DNA of 64,000 bases from an uncultured delta proteobacterium. GTDB taxonomy: Bacteria; Desulfobacterota; Desulfomonilia; Desulfomonilales; Desulfomonilaceae. Positions 39,001 through 51,000 of the stretch are shown here, piece after piece; position 1 is the first letter of the stretch, and each line of letters starts with the position of its first letter. The stretch covers positions 128,001-192,000 of the forward strand of contig CAWBKB010000004.1 of assembly GCA_963789265.1 (NCBI GenBank). Reading direction: 5' to 3'. Position numbers: made by a program.

Positions 39001-42000
39001 ATGCTGACGACCTCGGGCAAGCTCAGGGTTCATTCGTGCCTGGAGATAATTTTCGATCAAAGCAAGTGTGACAATTGTGAGGCATGCTTGTCTTTCTGTC
39101 CTACTGGAGCCATATCCAGCGGCTCACCTACCATCGTTTATGACCGCGAGATTTGCAACAACTGCCTTGGATGCTTTCTTGCCTGTCCGAACGGCGCCAT
39201 GAGCATCAAGCCGGAAGGAATTCCTATATTTCAAGAAAGTGTAGTCGAATCCGCTCGCACCGCAATGGACAACCTGCGGGGTGCGGCTTTTTTCATAAAT
39301 TTCCTGAGTTCCGTGACTCCGCAGACGAACGACCATCCTTTCTCCGACATACCGTTCATCCCCGATCTAGGCATACTGGCATCGGAAGATCCGGTAGCCG
39401 TCGATTGGGCAACTTATCAGATGATTACCAGCAGTCCCGGTGTGCCCGGTTCGATAGTCGAACAATTGGGTGTATTGGGCAAAGGTCAGGACAAAATCAA
39501 GGCTATTACAGGAATCGACCCTGAGCATTGGATCGAATACGCGGAACAGATGAAACTCGGGAGCCGGGCTTGTGAGTTCCTATCAAACGCCTGAGTCGTT
39601 TGGTGAGGGCTCCGATATTTTTCGCTCAAAAGGAGGCGGCATCAATGTCCACCGACCGCAGCATGGCGGAAATGCACAAAATGCACGGACCCATCAATCA
39701 GGCCATGGCCCACGTGAATTATAAGCTGGCCGTGATCAGCGGAAAAGGGGGAGTGGGAAAGACCAGCGTGGTAGTCAACCTCGCTGCCGCCTTAAAGAAA
39801 AAGGACATGGAGGTTGGGATTTTTGATGCGGACGTTCACGGCCCTAGCGTGCCCAAAATGGTGGGTATCAAAACCAAAATGAGGGACCTGCTTCACGGAA
39901 GCCACGGCATCGACCCTGTTTCCACAGATCACGGATTAAAGGTCATGTCCGTAGCGCTCATCTGGCCGACCGATATGACGCCCATTATGTGGCGCGGCCA
40001 GTACAAAGCCCGCGTGCTCAGGCAGTTCCTAAGCTCCATCAAATGGCATGAACTTGATTTCCTGCTCGTGGATCTTCCACCCGGTACGGGTGATGAGCCC
40101 ATCACGATTATGAAATCAATACCAAGTCTGGACGGTCTGATTGTCGTCACCACACCTCAGGAGATCTCCACCATCGTATGTAGCAAGGCCATCAATGCGG
40201 CCAAGGAACTCAACACCCCCATTATCGGCCTCATTGAGAACATGAACTCCTATCGTTGCCCCGGCTGCGGGCGGGAAGAATTCCTCTTCGGGAGAGAAAA
40301 AGGGGAGAAGCTGGCCAATACCTTCAAGATTCCGTTCCTCGGGGGCATACCTCTGGATGGGCAATATTCGGATGCCGCGGACCAAGGGATCCCTATCGTT
40401 TTTAAGCACCCGGATTCTCTAACTTCTCAGGCCATGTTGAAAATTGCAGATGAGATTGTCAGAAGATTGCCTCCCAGGCCAAAAGCGGTTGTAAAAGAGC
40501 ATGCCTGGGAAGAGGGCAGGGAACACAAACGAAAAACTCATTAGCAGATCCCACGCGGAATTTTGACAACGCGCACGGCGGGATCCAAATCCATGCGGCG
40601 CCGAAGCGAAATCCGCGATTGAAGATAACAACGCAGGAAGGAGTTTGAGATGGCAGATCAACAAAAAATCGATGTCACCGGGAAAGGTCCCGCCTTCATG
40701 AGAGAAGCCCTGGAGTTGTTCAGACAGATTGACGGACAGTGTGCTGCTTTGTCCCCGGATGCTGCCGTGAAAATCAAGGCAACTCTTTCAACCAAGGCAC
40801 ATGAAATTGAGCCTCTGCTGAGCCGAGCGTACATGAAAACAGTCAAGGCGGGAGAGACTGCTCTTGGCTGTAAGCAACTTGCAACCGACTTGAAATCGTC
40901 CATAGACACCGGTGATGAGGCTAAGGCATTGGAAGCCTTGGATAACCTTGGGACGCAACTCGATGGGCTCGTCCACAAAGTCAAAACTTTTGTGGTGAGA
41001 ATGACGTGATGTAGGAGGGGTAGTTTTGGCGGGAAAGCTGAGCGACGATCTTTTGGCCGTCATGAGGATCATTCAGGATAAGGGCGGCACGCACTGTTCG
41101 GGATCCTGCCATCATCGGAAACCTGGTGAATTCCACTGTCACTTGATCGGGCAGGAACTGAAGATGTCGTCGTCAGGTGTAAAAGATCGAATTCTTGCTC
41201 TGCTTCGGATGGGCCTGCTGAAACGCGAGAGAGTGGGCGGGCAAGAAGCATACCCCACCACGATGTTCACCATTTCGGCAAAGGGGGAAATGGTGCTGAC
41301 TCAGATCAGCGATGGCGACAAGAAATAGAGGTCCTTATGCCGCACCCAATGCATGAAGCGGTAGTTGACTTGATTCAGAAGGCCGTAGCTCTAATGGATG
41401 GCTTCCTGCGATATCAAACCGATTTGAATGAATATTCGGAGAAACTCAGAGCACTGGACGTGGACACCGTAATGGTCGCGTACGCAAACGATTTCAAGAA
41501 TGACGCCACGCTGGTCTATTACCTGGATGCGCTCATGCTCCTCTCTTCGCTCCAGCATGAGTTGGATTTCCAGGTTGCCGAGTACGGCGCCAACGTAGCG
41601 TTGGAAGACATGCGGAACTTACAAGAGCTGTTGAAGAAATTTCCCGAAAAGTAACACCGGTCATCACGCGGCTGCACCCGGAGGCGCCGGAAAGGAGAAA
41701 CAGATGAAGCTTGAAGGCAAAGTAGCCGTTGTTACAGGTGGAGCCCGAGGCAACGGCTTCGCCACAGCCAAACTGTTGGCTGAAGAAGGAGCGGATATAG
41801 TAATTGCCGATATCTGTGAGGATATGGCCACGATCCCTTATGCCATGTCCACCCCGGAAACGATGGCTGATGCGGTCGATGGCATAAAGCAATTGGATCG
41901 AAAAGCCGTTGGGATCAAGTGCGACGTGCGGAAATCTTCAGATGTTGAAGCAATGGTCCAACAAACTTTGGACACGTTCGGCAGAATCGACATACTGGTT

Positions 42001-48000: not shown

Positions 48001-51000
48001 ATCTGATCCGGCTATACCAAATCTCCTTCGCTTGATCGTAGGACAGTCATCTGTGGAAGTGCCGAATTATGACCTGGAGCGTGTGGCAGTAGCTGAAACC
48101 AATATAGACGACATGAACCCGCAGATATATGACTATCTGATGCAGAAGATGCTGGATATGGGGGCTCTTGATGTGTTTCTCGTTCCAATGCACATGAAAA
48201 AGAACCGGCCTGGCACTCTGGTGACGGTTATTTGCCATCCCGAGCGGATAAACGAGTTTGCCGGTTTCTTGATGCGGGAAACTACCACCATAGGGCTCAG
48301 ATGGCGCATTGACAACCGTATCAAAGCTCGAAGATCAATTCGAGAGGTTCAGACAAAGTATGGACCGGTCAAGGTCAAGGTTGCGGAAGTGAGTGGTGGC
48401 ACGCTAAACGCGACTCCGGAATATGAGGACTGTAAGCGTCTTGCACTGGAAAAAGAAATTCCCTTGAAGGAATTGATGGAGCACGCGAGAATGGCCGCGA
48501 CTGAAGCTTTTCTCACCGGTGTGAAATGACGAGCGCGCACAAGCGGTATATTGCGGGGTTTGCCCCGCGCAATGTTCCTTCTCTCGACGTTATCTTAGAG
48601 CAGCCGTTGAGAAACTGTCTCAAAAACGATGAAGCGGTCGGAATCGTAGCACGAATCCCTCACCCTGTATCCCTGTCCCAGAGGGCGAGGGAAGTGCAAT
48701 ACTGCCCTGGATCTGCTCCCTCTCCCTCTGGGAGAGGGTTGGGGTGAGGGCGACGATTATACGAATGAGACTGAATAGTGGCACGATTCTGGTCATCAAA
48801 ATAATTTTGAGACACTTTCTTGATCCCCGCCCTGCGGTTCGGCGCGCGATCATGGCTCGGAAGTAAGTTGTAGGGTCGCACACATGTTCAAGGCAGGTAC
48901 AGTAGTATCCAGGGACCCGATTTCTAAATCGGCGGGAGAGCGCCTGGGAGAGGCTCTCCTGGAAAGGCTGGATGGTCACGCTCCTTCCCTTTGCTGGCTG
49001 TTCAGCACCCCGTCCCTAGAATTGAAGGAGATGGTGAGCGGAGTGGTCCATGCCGTGGGCAGCAGCCATCTATTGGGGTGTACGACTGATGCCGAAATAT
49101 CAACCGAAGGCTTGAGCACCGGCTCGGTGGTCCTCTGCGGCGTTGTCACCGATCAAATCCGGTTTCACTTAGCTTTGGCAAAAGGTCTGCGTCAGGACTC
49201 CGGGCGAGCCGGCAAGAGACTTGCCAAACAGTTTCCTTCAACCGTGCAGTACGTGCAAATTTTCTCGGATGGCCTGACAGGAAATGGTTGCGCGCTCTTG
49301 CGAGGTTTGAGTTCCGCCTTGGGACGACATGTTCCCATAGCCGGTGGCACTGCGGGCGACGCCGGAGCGTTTCAGACTACTTCACAGTTTCTCGGGACGA
49401 AGATGTTTTCAGACGCGGTGGTAGCCGTGGGTTTTGAAGGCGATTTTGCAGTTGGAATGGGTGTACGGAGCGGTTGGTCCCCTATCGGGATTGCAAAGAA
49501 AGTCACCAAAGCTTCCGGCAACATTGTTTATGAATTAAACGGACAACCCGCGCTTGAAGTGTACGAGCGTTTCCTGGGAAAGCACGCGGACAAACTGCCC
49601 GCGGTGGGAGTTGAATATCCCCTTGGTCTGGTTCACAAATTGGAAGGCACAACTGAAGAAGAGTACCATATCTTGCGGGCCACTATGGCGGTCAACCGCC
49701 AAGACGGATCCATAGCCTTCGCTGGAGAAATTCCTGAGGGCTCCATGGTGCGCCTTACTTGCGGCGATCATGCTTCCATACTTGAAGCTGCGGAACAGGC
49801 AGCTTCTATGGCGATTAATGAAATGGGAAACCGCACTCCTTTCCTAGCGTTCTTTTATTCGTGCATGGCCCGCAGAATCGTGCTGGGCCGACGCACAGAA
49901 GAAGAAATAGATAGGATTCGTTTGGCGGTTGGAGCGAGATTGCCTATCGTGGGATTTTACACTTATGGAGAATTTTGCCGGGTCGCATGCAACGGGCCTA
50001 ACCTGTTCCACAATGAAACGGCCTCGGTGTCAGTCATCGGATTGTGAACCATGCACGCGTTCAAGGATCTCAGAGAGCGAATCAACGAACTGGAAGATCT
50101 GCTGGAGACCGCTGATCGAAAGGCGGACATCCTAACTAACCTCTTGAAGGAGGCCAATGCAGAATTCGAGCGCGCTCTGGAATTGGTCACCAGAACCGAG
50201 ACCAATTTTAGAGCGGTTTTTGAAAGCGCTCCGGAGGCAATCTACATAATCGACACGGAAACTTTGGAAATCGTCCACTGCAATCCCTTTATTATAAAGT
50301 GGTTAGGGTACAGCCGAGAAGAACTCCTGTCCATGAAAATGGATGACATAATAGTTGCTGACAATGCGGAGGTACACAATAACATCAGGAAGGCGTTGGA
50401 CAACGAGGTTGTGCATGTCCAGGAACGCAAGTACCGCAAGAAGGACGGAACCGTAGTAGATGCCGAAGTCACCGGCACCCTCGTGGAGTATGAGAGCAAG
50501 AAGTGTCTTGCAATCCTGGTAAGGGATATTGCCGAACGAAAACAGTTGGAAGAACTGTCCAGATACAAAGAACTCTTTGAAAGCGTCAGCGACCCGGTGT
50601 TCATAAACGACTTTCAGGGGCGCTTTCTCGAAGTAAATGAGGGCGCGTGCCAGGTCTTCGGCTATTCCCGAGACCAGCTTTTAAAGATGAGCGTGAAGGA
50701 CCTGACAAAACGGAATCAAATAGAAATCGTATCTGAGAACGGGAAGGTGATACAGAAAGGGTGGGCGGCAAGATTTGAAATGGAGTTGGTCCCACAAAAT
50801 GGGGAACCCATGCCATTTGAATTCCACGCGAGACCTATCACTTACAAGGGAAAACGGGCCACATTGAGCGTGGCTAGAGATCTGAGCCTCAGAAAGAAGC
50901 TGGAAGAAGCTCTGATAAGGACGGAGCGTCTCACAGCGGTTGGTGAAATGGCGAGCGGAATCGCCCACAACTTCAACAATCTTCTCCAAATGGTCATGGG

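Follow-up and report, generated by a model that had tools for sequence, protein, structure and literature searches.

A DUF362 protein with a predicted lactate-racemase fold as a candidate nickel-pincer enzyme in a sigma-54 operon with mycofactocin genes

Introduction

The occurrence of genes for the cofactor nickel-pincer nucleotide (NPN) directly behind those for a variant mycofactocin raises the question of which enzyme uses the NPN and whether the two cofactors belong to one pathway. The locus concerned lies in a stretch of 64,000 nucleotides, the window, from an uncultured delta proteobacterium of the Desulfomonilaceae (contig CAWBKB010000004.1, positions 128,001 to 192,000). An earlier note described a unit extending from an Mrp/NBP35-like ATPase at 39645 to larC at 48529 and read it as two redox cofactors at work together, an unrecognized NPN-dependent hydride-transfer enzyme other than LarA delivering its electrons to mycofactocin.

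Results

Operon layout

The unit described before makes up the downstream two-thirds of a single operon of about 12 kb under sigma-54 control, which runs from a promoter at 36553 to the end of larC at 48529; the start at 39645 was too late, as the promoter and two DUF362 genes begin about 3 kb upstream. The features of the region are as follows, scores for named genes being bits / curated NCBIfam cut-off.

33145..34341, +, PAS sensor histidine kinase HK1 (Pfam HisKA, HATPase_c, PAS_4)
34640..35977, +, sigma-54-dependent response regulator, AtoC/NtrC type (Response_reg, Sigma54_activat, HTH_8)
36195..36395, strand., MITE-like repeat repA (28-nt inverted ends)
36553..36568, +, sigma-54 type promoter AGGCATGGACCTTGCA (GG-N10-GC; motif match)
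36876..38234, +, DUF362A, predicted LarA-fold protein with ferredoxin insert (PF04015, 5.3e-41)
38481..39594, +, DUF362B, degenerate paralogue of DUF362A (PF04015, 2.9e-20, and Fer4)
39645..40544, +, Mrp/NBP35-type P-loop ATPase (Pfam ParA/NUBPL, 1.8e-86)
40650..41009, +, s1, 119-aa orphan protein (subtype I loci only)
41026..41328, +, s2, 100-aa winged-helix protein (motif C24-x3-C28-H-H-x6-H-C-H)
41337..41654, +, s3, 105-aa orphan protein (orthologues in 35 loci)
41704..42513, +, mycofactocin-coupled SDR, subfamily 3 (NF040490, 522.1 / 385)
42603..42728, +, variant mycofactocin precursor MftA* (NF040489, 55.6 / 30)
42740..43075 (likely start 42794), +, MftB chaperone (TIGR03967, 52.2 / 33)
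43056..44087, +, MftC radical-SAM/SPASM maturase (TIGR03962, 367.5 / 265)
44089..45582 (likely start 44089; ORF from 43975), +, MftF glycosyltransferase (TIGR03965, 351.8 / 280)
45633..46460 (likely start 45633; ORF from 45414), +, LarE, CXXC-C ([4Fe-4S]) type (TIGR00268, 304.2 / 150)
46465..47289, +, LarB (NF033503, 300.1 / 175)
47330..48529, +, LarC, LarC1 and LarC2 fused (TIGR00299, NF052512, PF01969)
48605..48825, strand., MITE-like repeat repB (inverted ends present)
48884..50047, +, FIST-domain sensor protein, NosP-like (FIST, FIST_C)
50051..52069, +, PAS hybrid histidine kinase/receiver HK2 (profile matches; retained with the FIST gene)

The operon genes are closely spaced on one strand, with the 89-nt gap between SDR and MftA* and the 20-nt overlap of MftB and MftC that had been noted, and no terminator signal exceeding that of shuffled sequences was found in the operon. 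The promoter motif is the sole match within its 900-nt gap, where simple arithmetic gives a chance expectation of about 0.09 matches per 900 nt, and in 23/25 orthologous loci the same motif is found 145-447 nt upstream of DUF362A. Further support comes from the sigma-54 activator gene next to the operon, which matches NF008469 at 5.1e-117, under that family's cut-off; both this regulator, adjoining the cluster, and HK1, upstream of it, recur in most orthologous loci.

Mycofactocin and nickel-pincer genes

All eight genes from the SDR to LarC were recovered on the plus strand where they had been reported, each above its NCBIfam cut-off, preceded by the ATPase and three family-less ORFs. The SDR signatures TGxxxGxG, D36, NNAG, S, Y166 and K170 are invariant across 50 sequences, and the MftA* C-terminus VDGICGIY is identical in 31/31 orthologues; most subtype II loci do not have MftF. 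In the genome (95.6% complete) MftE was not found, nor was a true MftD, which leaves the known path to the redox-active keto-amide incomplete. The genome's other, ETF-type Mft cluster likewise lacks MftD and MftE, and no DUF362 gene belongs to it.

As judged from sequence, the operon encodes the full NPN pathway, namely LarE of the [4Fe-4S] type, LarB and LarC. Residues C98, C101 and C178 of LarE are retained in 29/29 sequences; the CXXC-C pattern is common to Thermotoga maritima LarE, where Cys95 to Cys172 has the same 77-residue spacing (accessible text of PMC9283937). LarC (LarC1, 227.5 / 90; LarC2, 152.9 / 50; Pfam Ni_insertion, 502.6 bits) is the sole LarC match in a genome-wide search. 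The extra LarB and LarE mentioned in the earlier note were located at C1:871817-872443 and C5:120311-121096, and no NPN client was seen among the neighbours of either. The lone LarA-like fragment also proved real: the only above-cut-off Lar_N match in the genome is a 183-aa ORF (C5:616367-616765), followed by an 86-aa ORF that, by eye, may be a LarA C-terminal remnant. This arrangement is taken for a LarA pseudogene, and a non-LarA NPN client is needed in this genome for that reason. The argument from a missing LarA holds for the window genome but not as a generality, for Lar_N genes are present in 32/48 carrier genomes (none shown in 16/48). Across the phylum sample, 91/101 genomes have LarC but only 55/101 have Lar_N.

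DUF362A and its paralogue

A concrete candidate for the client, outside the coordinates considered before, is DUF362A, for which modelling predicts the lactate-racemase (LarA) fold. With its AF2 model (pLDDT 93.2), all 18 Foldseek matches at E<=1e-3 (the top 18) are of the LarA family, and the five highest VIA Z scores against LarA-family chains are 18.2, 17.4, 16.8, 15.4 and 14.8, compared with at most 8.5 for any non-LarA chain. An hhalign alignment, with a probability of only 46% (E 2e-4), places H165, K175 and H191 on the LarA H...GGxK...H motif, and their 10- and 16-residue spacings equal those of LarA residues H174, K184 and H200 (PMC7583248). DUF362 and LarA also share a Pfam clan, CL0471, according to the available part of PMC11770544. 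LarA His108, however, aligns with Asn94, and LarA Arg75 is without clear counterpart. A 2x[4Fe-4S] ferredoxin domain is inserted at residues about 193-267, directly after H191, the nickel-ligand equivalent. All orthologues (40/40) have H161, H165, H191 and the insert cysteines other than C212 (seven of eight), and C212 and K175 are each present in 39/40; across a set of 123 diverse DUF362 proteins the H/K/H residues are conserved in at least 90%. In subtype I loci no other protein of the block is as well conserved as DUF362A (83-96% identity).

In DUF362B the K175-equivalent position is variable (Y 18, A 8, L 4, K 4, others). The ferredoxin insert is carried in the subtype of the window locus; in 11 subtype II loci it is missing and the H191 equivalent is Leu. 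The window assembly interrupts DUF362B by a +1 frameshift near 38561-38565, the N-terminus MSNVYWIKGRS... lying in a different frame with one extra base relative to loci L011, L013 and L064.

Conservation of the block

The DUF362A/B, Mrp, small-protein, SDR, Mft and Lar genes are conserved together in dozens of anaerobes. Among 52 orthologous loci, from several Desulfobacterota orders and one Anaeromyxobacter MAG, MftC is followed by LarB in 41, a far wider synteny than the three variant-type loci on which the link had been based; the SDR directly precedes LarE-LarB-LarC in one, ten end before the lar position, and no locus (0/52) extends beyond the Mft genes without showing lar genes. DUF362A/B-Mrp lies upstream in 43/52. 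In five genomes DUF362A is absent from the cluster, and all five carry an orthologue at another place, in one case on the cluster's contig, about 18 kb downstream, with DUF362B and Mrp. Locus L057 reads DUF362A/B-Mrp-SDR-LarEBC, with no MftABC, and the complete genome G021 has DUF362A-B-Mrp-SDR-MftABC-OYE-ETF-MftF-LarEBC-AOR in one string; AOR stands beside the block in 20 loci.

Beyond the block, LarC was present in 86/90 Desulfobacterota genomes with DUF362 and 5/11 without, and in 55/58 and 31/63, respectively, of Myxococcota genomes, that is, in 95-96% against 45-49%, as raw counts that ignore phylogeny, genome size and lifestyle. DUF362 occurs in 35/39 LarC-positive, Lar_N-negative genomes, no commoner than in the whole sample (90/101). 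DUF362 without LarC was seen in 4 + 3 genomes of the two samples and in Bacteroides thetaiotaomicron, used as a control.

Discussion

The best explanation of the whole, which we regard as having an even chance of being right, is an NPN enzyme made of DUF362A/B in a sigma-54 operon and tied to mycofactocin. We consider it rather likely that DUF362A is the NPN client, its pincer re-oxidized by its own clusters, with DUF362B as partner. A coupling of this NPN-dependent enzyme to the SDR/mycofactocin redox couple is probable. The cofactor made by LarB, LarE and LarC would be held by Lys175 (tether) and His191 (nickel ligand), with His165 as acid/base, all as in LarA. Whereas LarA returns the hydride to its own substrate, DUF362A is proposed to pass electrons to Fe-S clusters instead: the two [4Fe-4S] clusters behind His191 would re-oxidize the reduced pincer one electron at a time, giving in sum a hydride-to-electron oxidoreductase linked to ferredoxin. 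DUF362B, its lysine lost, would serve as a partner that is non-catalytic or binds the substrate. In the literature searched, no printed record of DUF362A/B as an NPN enzyme was found. Counting against DUF362A as client are the LarA homologues of the 32/48 carrier genomes, themselves possible clients, the low hhalign probability, the replacement of LarA His108 by Asn94, the genomes with DUF362 but no LarC, and the lack of any rise of DUF362 among LarC-positive genomes without Lar_N; the DUF362B frameshift in the window assembly counts against the explanation as a whole.

That the variant mycofactocin is itself the substrate of DUF362A/B is a tentative idea, on the doubtful side. Reduced mycofactocin is an alpha-hydroxy amide and the oxidized form an alpha-keto amide, and LarA enzymes carry out this same chemistry on alpha-hydroxy acids. 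On this view DUF362A/B would regenerate the cofactor used by the SDR, in the role of MftG but anaerobically and linked to ferredoxin, and the tungsten-type AOR found behind LarC in many relatives would feed the same ferredoxin pool as part of an alcohol/aldehyde/acid pathway. Against this stand the potential of mycofactocin, which is well above that of ferredoxin, the incomplete keto-amide route and locus L057. What stands of the earlier two-cofactor reading is the conserved physical and evolutionary link of the Mft genes with larE, larB and larC, and the need for a non-LarA client.

Alternatively, though we think it unlikely, DUF362A/B could be NPN-dependent but act on a pathway metabolite (a 2-hydroxy acid or other small alcohol), NPN and mycofactocin serving in parallel as cofactors of separate enzymes (DUF362A/B, SDR, AOR) of one sigma-54-induced catabolic route. 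L057 without MftABC would fit, as would the AOR adjoining 20 loci, the separability of DUF362A/B-Mrp from the SDR-Mft-Lar part, and the small 2-hydroxy acids used by all characterized LarA-fold enzymes covered in the available part of PMC11770544. Yet the block stands almost always with MftABC (41 loci) and with an SDR subfamily defined by its mycofactocin link, which demands more than common regulation, and it has no transporter or extra catabolic enzyme indicating a substrate.

It is improbable that DUF362A/B is instead biosynthetic, replacing the missing MftD (perhaps MftE) by an O2-independent, NPN-mediated oxidation of the MftC-lactam amine to the keto form, with electrons passed to the Fe-S clusters. 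MftD uses O2 and the carriers are anaerobic, the genome has no MftE or true MftD, G021 unites ETF-type Mft genes, lar genes and DUF362A/B, and amine oxidation with a nickel-pincer dinucleotide has a precedent in ornithine cyclodeaminase, as cited in PMC13524815. An entire cofactor pathway nevertheless seems costly for a maturation step needed once per molecule; DUF362A is the block's most conserved protein, the ETF-type cluster does without MftD/E and without a DUF362 of its own, and L057 has no MftABC.

Quite improbable, too, is that the lar genes stand here only for co-regulation or general supply, with clients elsewhere among LarA homologues, DUF362 paralogues and AKR-type enzymes. The genome has at least 12 further DUF362 genes and a single LarC, there are four AKR matches next to the other Mft cluster, and Lar_N genes are frequent among carriers (32/48). 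It would, however, be unexpected for a housekeeping supply gene to stand behind a dedicated sigma-54 promoter in at least 40 genomes, LarA is dead in the window genome, and the second LarB and LarE neighbourhoods show no client. An AKR as NPN user, raised in the earlier note, fared poorly in the one of five AKR matches examined, which resembles the ordinary NADPH-type AKR13; 9YEB was not among the matches at 1e-10. Least credible is that the SDR, rather than DUF362A, uses nickel-pincer adenine dinucleotide instead of tightly bound NAD: Asp36 for the adenosine ribose is retained and the SDR remains with the lar genes even in L057, but the invariant classical set Ser, Tyr166, Lys170, NNAG and PG (50 sequences) is that expected for ordinary nicotinamide C4 chemistry, no conserved nickel-ligand His and Lys pair was identified in the SDR, and DUF362A has a homologous, ready-made putative NPN site.

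Small proteins and flanking elements

The Mrp/NBP35-type ATPase is a probable Fe-S cluster carrier; its CPGC motif is retained in 41/41 sequences, and its score against MrpORP NF041136 (294.9 bits) does not reach the cut-off of 450. repA has inverted arms at 36200-36227 and 36363-36390 and 32 copies of at least 150 nt in the genome, repB 60 such copies; a 73-aa ORF at 48526-48747 was rejected as a gene, its translation matching more than 25 genome places (the repB repeat). The FIST gene, beside the block in many orthologous loci, scores 88 bits against NF041558, below the cut-off of 450. No Pfam or NCBIfam family was found for s1 (orthologues in 32 loci; no usable Atlas match) or s3 (Atlas matches only <=0.77), and profile searches assigned none to s2. 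The AF2 model of s2 (pLDDT 85.1) has MarR-like closest PDB folds, 1sfx, MexR and the zinc-responsive ZitR; its Cys/His motif is invariant among orthologues, and in 5/33 of these the C28 codon is an in-frame TGA with a hairpin behind it.

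Gene content and extent of the operon

A series of genes runs without interruption along the + strand from 33.1 to 52.1 kb, named here with NCBIfam and Pfam. It encodes two PF04015 proteins (DUF362A and DUF362B), a variant mycofactocin system with its precursor MftA* and a mycofactocin-coupled short-chain dehydrogenase (SDR), and the LarE, LarB and LarC proteins that make the nickel-pincer nucleotide (NPN):

33145–34341, +, PAS histidine kinase
34640–35977, +, sigma-54-dependent response regulator (activator)
between the response regulator and DUF362A, gap of 900 nt
36876–38234, +, DUF362A, 452 aa (PF04015)
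38572–39594, +, open reading frame of DUF362B, with Fer4 motifs (PF04015)
39645–40544, +, Mrp/NBP35 ATPase
40650–41009, +, small ORF s1, no family
41026–41328, +, small ORF s2, no family in NCBIfam or Pfam
41337–41654, +, small ORF s3, no family
after s3, +, in this order: subfamily-3 SDR, MftA*, MftB, MftC, MftF, LarE, LarB, LarC
downstream of LarC, +, FIST sensor, then hybrid kinase

An earlier note had described the mycofactocin and lar genes as one operon. This observation is confirmed: all of the gene families that it named exceed the curated NCBIfam cut-offs, and the spacings agree. The NPN biosynthesis set is complete, with scores of 304.2 bits for LarE (cut-off 150), 300.1 for LarB (175), 227.5 for LarC1 (90) and 152.9 for LarC2 (50). 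DUF362A and DUF362B reach 141.3 and 73.6 bits, respectively, against a Pfam gathering cut-off of 24 for PF04015. The same note had placed the start of the operon at the Mrp gene (39645); the first gene is DUF362A instead, because a sigma-54 promoter motif lies upstream of it and a sigma-54 activator gene adjoins. The promoter search used a loosened GG-N10-GC pattern, compared across orthologous loci. The motif AGGCATGGACCTTGCA at 36553 is the sole GG-N10-GC in the gap upstream of DUF362A, where a simple arithmetic estimate puts chance matches at about 0.09 per 900 nt, and 23 of the 25 loci with enough upstream sequence have the pattern 145–447 nt 5′ of their DUF362A gene. With this promoter and the gene for a cognate enhancer-binding protein (34640–35977), the operon is predicted from its sequence to belong to the sigma-54 regulon. 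Intrinsic terminators are not above chance (13 versus 17.7 ± 4.4 in shuffles) and therefore give no help in placing the end of the operon relative to the FIST and kinase genes.

Rfam gave no match at E ≤ 0.1 between 32000 and 54000, and a riboswitch in the 5′ leader (36553–36875), which is kept in the two closest relatives only, is not proposed. The operon is bordered on each side by a repeat of a MITE-like family with inverted ends, one at 36195–36395 (32 near-full genome copies) and another at 48605–48825 (60 copies). A 73-aa ORF after LarC was rejected as a gene, being a copy of a repeat element with 60 near-full genome copies. Further upstream, a near-consensus sigma-54 promoter, CTGGCACGAAGTTTGCT, is found at 31117–31133 (+) before an ORF at 31978–32889. 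On the opposite strand, a pair of neighbouring genes, each coding for about 227 aa (52798–53481 and 53497–54183, −), converge on the kinase gene of the cluster and contain only the half-domains of NirB-type siroheme/4Fe-4S proteins (NIR_SIR_ferr and NIR_SIR).

Conservation of the gene block

Of 59 loci retrieved with the SDR as query, the 52 with an SDR of at least 60% identity were taken as orthologous, and the window's proteins were mapped onto them. Their source records bear the labels Desulfomonilaceae, Syntrophaceae, Syntrophobacteraceae, Desulfatiglandales and Desulfobacterales, with one Anaeromyxobacter MAG in addition; MAGs under the names Desulfomonile or Syntrophobacter contribute some of the loci. 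MftC is followed by LarB in 41 of the 52 loci, and in one (L057) the SDR passes directly into LarE-LarB-LarC without MftABC; ten loci stop before the lar position and none continues without lar genes. Mere co-regulation is a rival explanation of this lar/mft adjacency. DUF362A and/or DUF362B with Mrp precede the SDR in 43 loci, while four loci begin too late. Each of the five genomes whose locus is without DUF362A/B-Mrp has a DUF362A orthologue elsewhere; in one of them it stands with DUF362B and Mrp some 18 kb further downstream on the contig that carries the locus.

Two subtypes can be distinguished. Subtype I, which includes the window, contains s1–s3 and MftF, and no protein of the block is better conserved than its DUF362A, at 83–96% identity across families. 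Subtype II (Desulfobacterales) lacks s1–s3 and mostly MftF, and its DUF362A is 56–59% identical to that of the window. In 17 loci LarC is followed by an AOR-family gene (tungsten-type aldehyde:ferredoxin oxidoreductase; PF01314/PF02730), and three others have one upstream. The AORs after LarC are well conserved (75–90% identity; for example L049, 15116–16948). The window's block contains none; elsewhere in the window there is only a paralogue of 26% identity, some 20 kb further upstream (14957–16732, −). MftC is rare in the phylum, exceeding its cut-off in four of 101 Desulfobacterota genomes sampled. In one of these four, a complete genome (G021, C1:512–542 kb; L120 and L121), a single string reads DUF362A-B-Mrp-SDR-MftA(GVY)-MftB-MftC-OYE-ETF-MftF-LarE-LarB-LarC-AOR. 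This string unites the 'variant' cluster type with the 'ETF' type and, since its precursor ends in GVY, the link between Mft, lar and DUF362 genes is not tied to the GIY precursor.

The Anaeromyxobacter-labelled MAG (G145) carries three related pieces: a subtype-I DUF362A(83%)-B-Mrp-s1-s3 module with no SDR behind it (L113, C16), a subtype-II module fused to SDR-LarEBC without MftABC (L057, C126), and an MftABCF set elsewhere. Modular shuffling or a mixed bin may account for them.

Predicted fold and conserved residues of DUF362A

To our knowledge, no member of DUF362 has been characterised; the family comprises about 2000 cluster representatives at E ≤ 1e-3. Together with Lar_N (PF09861), the domain of the LarA family, it is placed in Pfam clan CL0471 in passages of PMC11770544. 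A model of DUF362A built on 123 diverse relatives (pLDDT 93.2, pTM 0.92) is predicted to have the two-domain α/β fold of LarA. All 18 matches of the model in a Foldseek search of the PDB at E ≤ 1e-3 are LarA-family structures. An independent structure search with VIA gave Z scores of 18.2, 17.4, 16.8, 15.4 and 14.8 for 7S91, 9EIA, 5HUQ, 9Q3J and 4NAR over 214–230 aligned residues, followed, at Z ≤ 8.5, by ferredoxin domains on residues 193–267. A sequence search of the PDB with DUF362A and its profile matched ferredoxin domains alone.

In a profile–profile alignment with 23 LarA homologues of the same phylum (probability 46%, E 2e-4), H165, K175 and H191 of DUF362A fall on the LarA motif H...GGxK...H, and they stand 10 and 16 residues apart, just as His174, Lys184 and His200 do. 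In LarA, as described in PMC7583248 and PMC12611868, His174 is a catalytic base, Lys184 tethers the thioamide and His200 is the nickel ligand. Among 40 orthologues, H161, H165, H191 and seven of the eight cluster cysteines are invariant, and C212 and K175 are each present in 39; across the 123-sequence DUF362 alignment H161, H165, K175, H191 and the cluster cysteines are at least 90% conserved. The insertion point of the ferredoxin domain (2×[4Fe-4S]) is no more than a few residues past H191. Among the insert-less DUF362 paralogues of the source genome, six of eight have H-10-K-15-H as read by eye. In the same 46%-probability alignment Asn94 takes the place of LarA His108 and no clear equivalent of Arg75 is seen, so that only one of the two catalytic histidines of LarA (His108 and His174) has a histidine counterpart, H165 on His174. 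LarA homologues with one catalytic histidine exist, but those described in passages of PMC12611868 are without His174.

DUF362A shares with the LarA superfamily (Lar_N/DUF2088; 5HUQ, 6C1W, 7S91, 9EIA, 9Q3J) the clan, the predicted two-domain fold (Z 15–18), putative equivalents of His174, Lys184 and His200 at identical spacing and a position beside larB/C/E. It differs in matching, like DUF362B, PF04015 only (the locus is absent from a genome-wide Lar_N scan at E ≤ 0.01), in the asparagine, in the cluster insert after the predicted nickel-ligand histidine, in being paired with a degenerate paralogue and in the net redox chemistry, rather than racemisation, that is predicted for it.

DUF362B

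The position equivalent to K175 is occupied in DUF362B by Tyr in 18 sequences, Ala in eight, Leu in four, Lys in four and other residues in the rest, the lysine being lost in most; in subtype II the H191 equivalent and the insert are lost as well. From these substitutions DUF362B is read as a degenerate partner of DUF362A. In the assembly it is frameshifted, with the first 28 codons, from the ATG at 38481, out of frame. Near 38561–38565, in a short C run, the window carries one base more than L011, L013 and L064, and a 249-nt short-read contig of low depth (4.7) stops at 38563, right where the frame shifts. The shift may be an error of the assembly or a genuine mutation.

Mycofactocin, LarE and Mrp proteins

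Four components of the variant-type mycofactocin system, the NF040489 precursor, the NF040490 SDR, MftB and MftC, score above curated cut-offs, and all 31 orthologues of MftA* share its C-terminus VDGICGIY. No match to MftE (TIGR03964) was found in the source genome, which is 95.6% complete, and no true MftD (TIGR03966), for which the cut-off is 470.85 bits and the best score 22. A biosynthetic role of DUF362A/B in place of MftD is accordingly one of the rival explanations considered below. The other mycofactocin cluster of the genome (C1:2566–2586 kb) is of the ETF/OYE type.

LarE has the CXXC-C cysteines (C98, C101 and C178) in all 29 sequences. Passages of PMC9283937 assign this motif (Cys92/95/172 numbering) to the catalytic LarE with a [4Fe-4S] cluster, and the LarE of the operon is predicted to be of this type. 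The Mrp protein retains the CPGC motif and may load the many Fe-S sites of DUF362A/B, LarE and MftC.

Nickel-pincer clients

LarC is found in 86 of 90 Desulfobacterota genomes with DUF362 versus five of 11 without (Fisher p 6e-5), and in 55 of 58 versus 31 of 63 Myxococcota genomes (p 1.4e-8; 101 and 121 genomes in all), in tests that treat related genomes as independent and whose double negatives are inflated by small or incomplete genomes. DUF362 and LarC coincide in four of five cases among 14 control genomes. DUF362 is not enriched among the LarC-positive, LarA-negative genomes (35 of 39, versus 90 of 101 overall). LarC is present in 91 of the 101 Desulfobacterota genomes and Lar_N in only 55, so that many genomes must hold clients, that is, enzymes using NPN, other than LarA; the known users of NPN would thus be a minority of its clients. 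Lar_N also occurs in 32 of 48 carrier genomes. The known users in the literature consulted are LarA-type racemases and epimerases and one enzyme of the aldo-keto reductase (AKR) fold, with a dinucleotide variant of the cofactor in one cyclodeaminase (cited in PMC13524815).

LarC is single-copy in the source genome. LarB and LarE each have a further copy elsewhere, in agreement with the earlier note, and no plausible NPN client was found among the neighbours of these copies. The only Lar_N match above the cut-off is a 183-aa N-terminal LarA ORF (C5, ~616.1–616.8 kb; L001 1230–1935), which loses register after about 143 residues and is followed by an 86-aa ORF, by eye a possible remnant of the LarA C-terminus. 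This suggests that the sole LarA-like gene of the genome is an internally deleted pseudogene. One of five AKR proteins had also been put forward as a possible NphT-type client. Five AKR matches do exist; the nearest solved relatives of the one compared are NADPH-type AKR13 enzymes, and NphT (9YEB) is not among its matches at 1e-10. Four of the five adjoin the ETF-type mycofactocin cluster (C1:2558866–2566478; L115 and L117–L119), one of them split in two.

Proposed function

Taking gene content and order, promoter motif, conservation, fold and conserved residues as observed, we favour, on balance, a mechanism in which NPN made by LarB, LarE and LarC is loaded into DUF362A, where it would accept a hydride and be re-oxidised through the inserted [4Fe-4S] clusters. 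If so, DUF362A would be without precedent among NPN enzymes in its coupling to Fe-S clusters, which implies net redox chemistry. With a LarA fold, conserved anchor residues and the cofactor pathway in its own operon, DUF362A offers an experimental handle on the missing clients. It also suggests, for the first time, a way in which cofactors of the mycofactocin type might be matured or recycled in strict anaerobes without MftD, MftE or an oxygen-linked outlet.

The substrate is a separate and more doubtful matter. Reduced mycofactocin is an α-hydroxy amide, and the reduced variant mycofactocin is a tentative candidate, in which case DUF362A/B would act as a ferredoxin-linked recycler for the SDR. 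A small metabolite may be the substrate instead, or DUF362A/B may be biosynthetic and replace MftD. A further rival has the SDR itself using a nickel-pincer dinucleotide; the whole classical dinucleotide-binding and catalytic signature, kept in 50 SDR sequences, speaks against this and favours ordinary NAD chemistry.

Still wider, and speculative, is the thought that all DUF362 proteins form a large unrecognised nickel-pincer family, in which a LarA scaffold connected to Fe-S clusters, either inserted or on a partner, would let NPN act as a hydride-to-single-electron transducer, a 'nickel flavin' for anaerobes, and not as the cofactor of a hidden-redox isomerase. Here it could be the missing anaerobic mycofactocin recycler, with a path from SDR through mycofactocin and NPN to ferredoxin.

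Comparison with known systems

NphT (9YEB) is a client outside the LarA type that came to light, as the candidate DUF362A did, by its adjacency to larB/C/E, and it too holds NPN by a His and Lys pair, the pair in DUF362A being predicted. Both LarA and NphT show a +450 Da adduct (PMC13524815). NphT has the TIM-barrel AKR fold without Fe-S and shuttles hydride between sugars (PMC13524815), whereas DUF362A combines the predicted LarA fold with Fe-S clusters. In that paper's main text and 12 of its supplementary files, leaving five further files outside the search, DUF362, PF04015 and mycofactocin do not appear; PF13561, PF00106 and PF10609 are likewise absent from the 12 files, and the other five may hold a Pfam co-occurrence table. 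Outside the subscription journals, searches found no literature joining mycofactocin with the nickel pincer and none on a nickel-pincer enzyme with 4Fe-4S clusters or ferredoxin. Among papers retrieved for DUF362/PF04015, most judged by title or abstract, only PMC11770544 concerns the family, as an outgroup.

The canonical actinobacterial mycofactocin system comprises MftA–F with re-oxidation by MftG, and MftR is its regulator. MftA, MftB, MftC, MftF and the SDR are above cut-offs here too. The window's system differs in a precursor ending in GIY rather than GVY, in the lack of MftD and MftE, in predicted sigma-54 control instead of MftR, in anaerobic hosts and in the lar genes, DUF362A/B and, often, AOR that are joined on. 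ETF-type clusters (mft_etfA/B, OYE_2), such as that of the source genome, have MftB, MftC and MftF in common with it and likewise lack MftD and MftE; the source genome's cluster contains no lar or DUF362 genes, and its electron outlet is ETF with an HdrD-like protein. G021 brings both types together with lar genes and DUF362A/B.

Small proteins s1–s3

The Protein Atlas gave no usable lead for s1 and s3. For s2 a winged-helix fold is predicted (pLDDT 85.1), with 1sfx, MexR and the zinc-sensing ZitR as nearest folds, and its loop C-x3-C-H-H-x6-H-C-H is invariant apart from the second cysteine, which is an in-frame TGA in five of 33 orthologues (L032, L033, L039, L046 and L061). A CACCG-N6-CGGUG hairpin begins 4 nt after the TGA in those five. 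The TGA with its hairpin is the signature of a Cys/selenocysteine pair, which points to a metal- or redox-active s2 and makes this winged-helix protein a probable member of an undescribed selenoprotein family, and so an additional lead.
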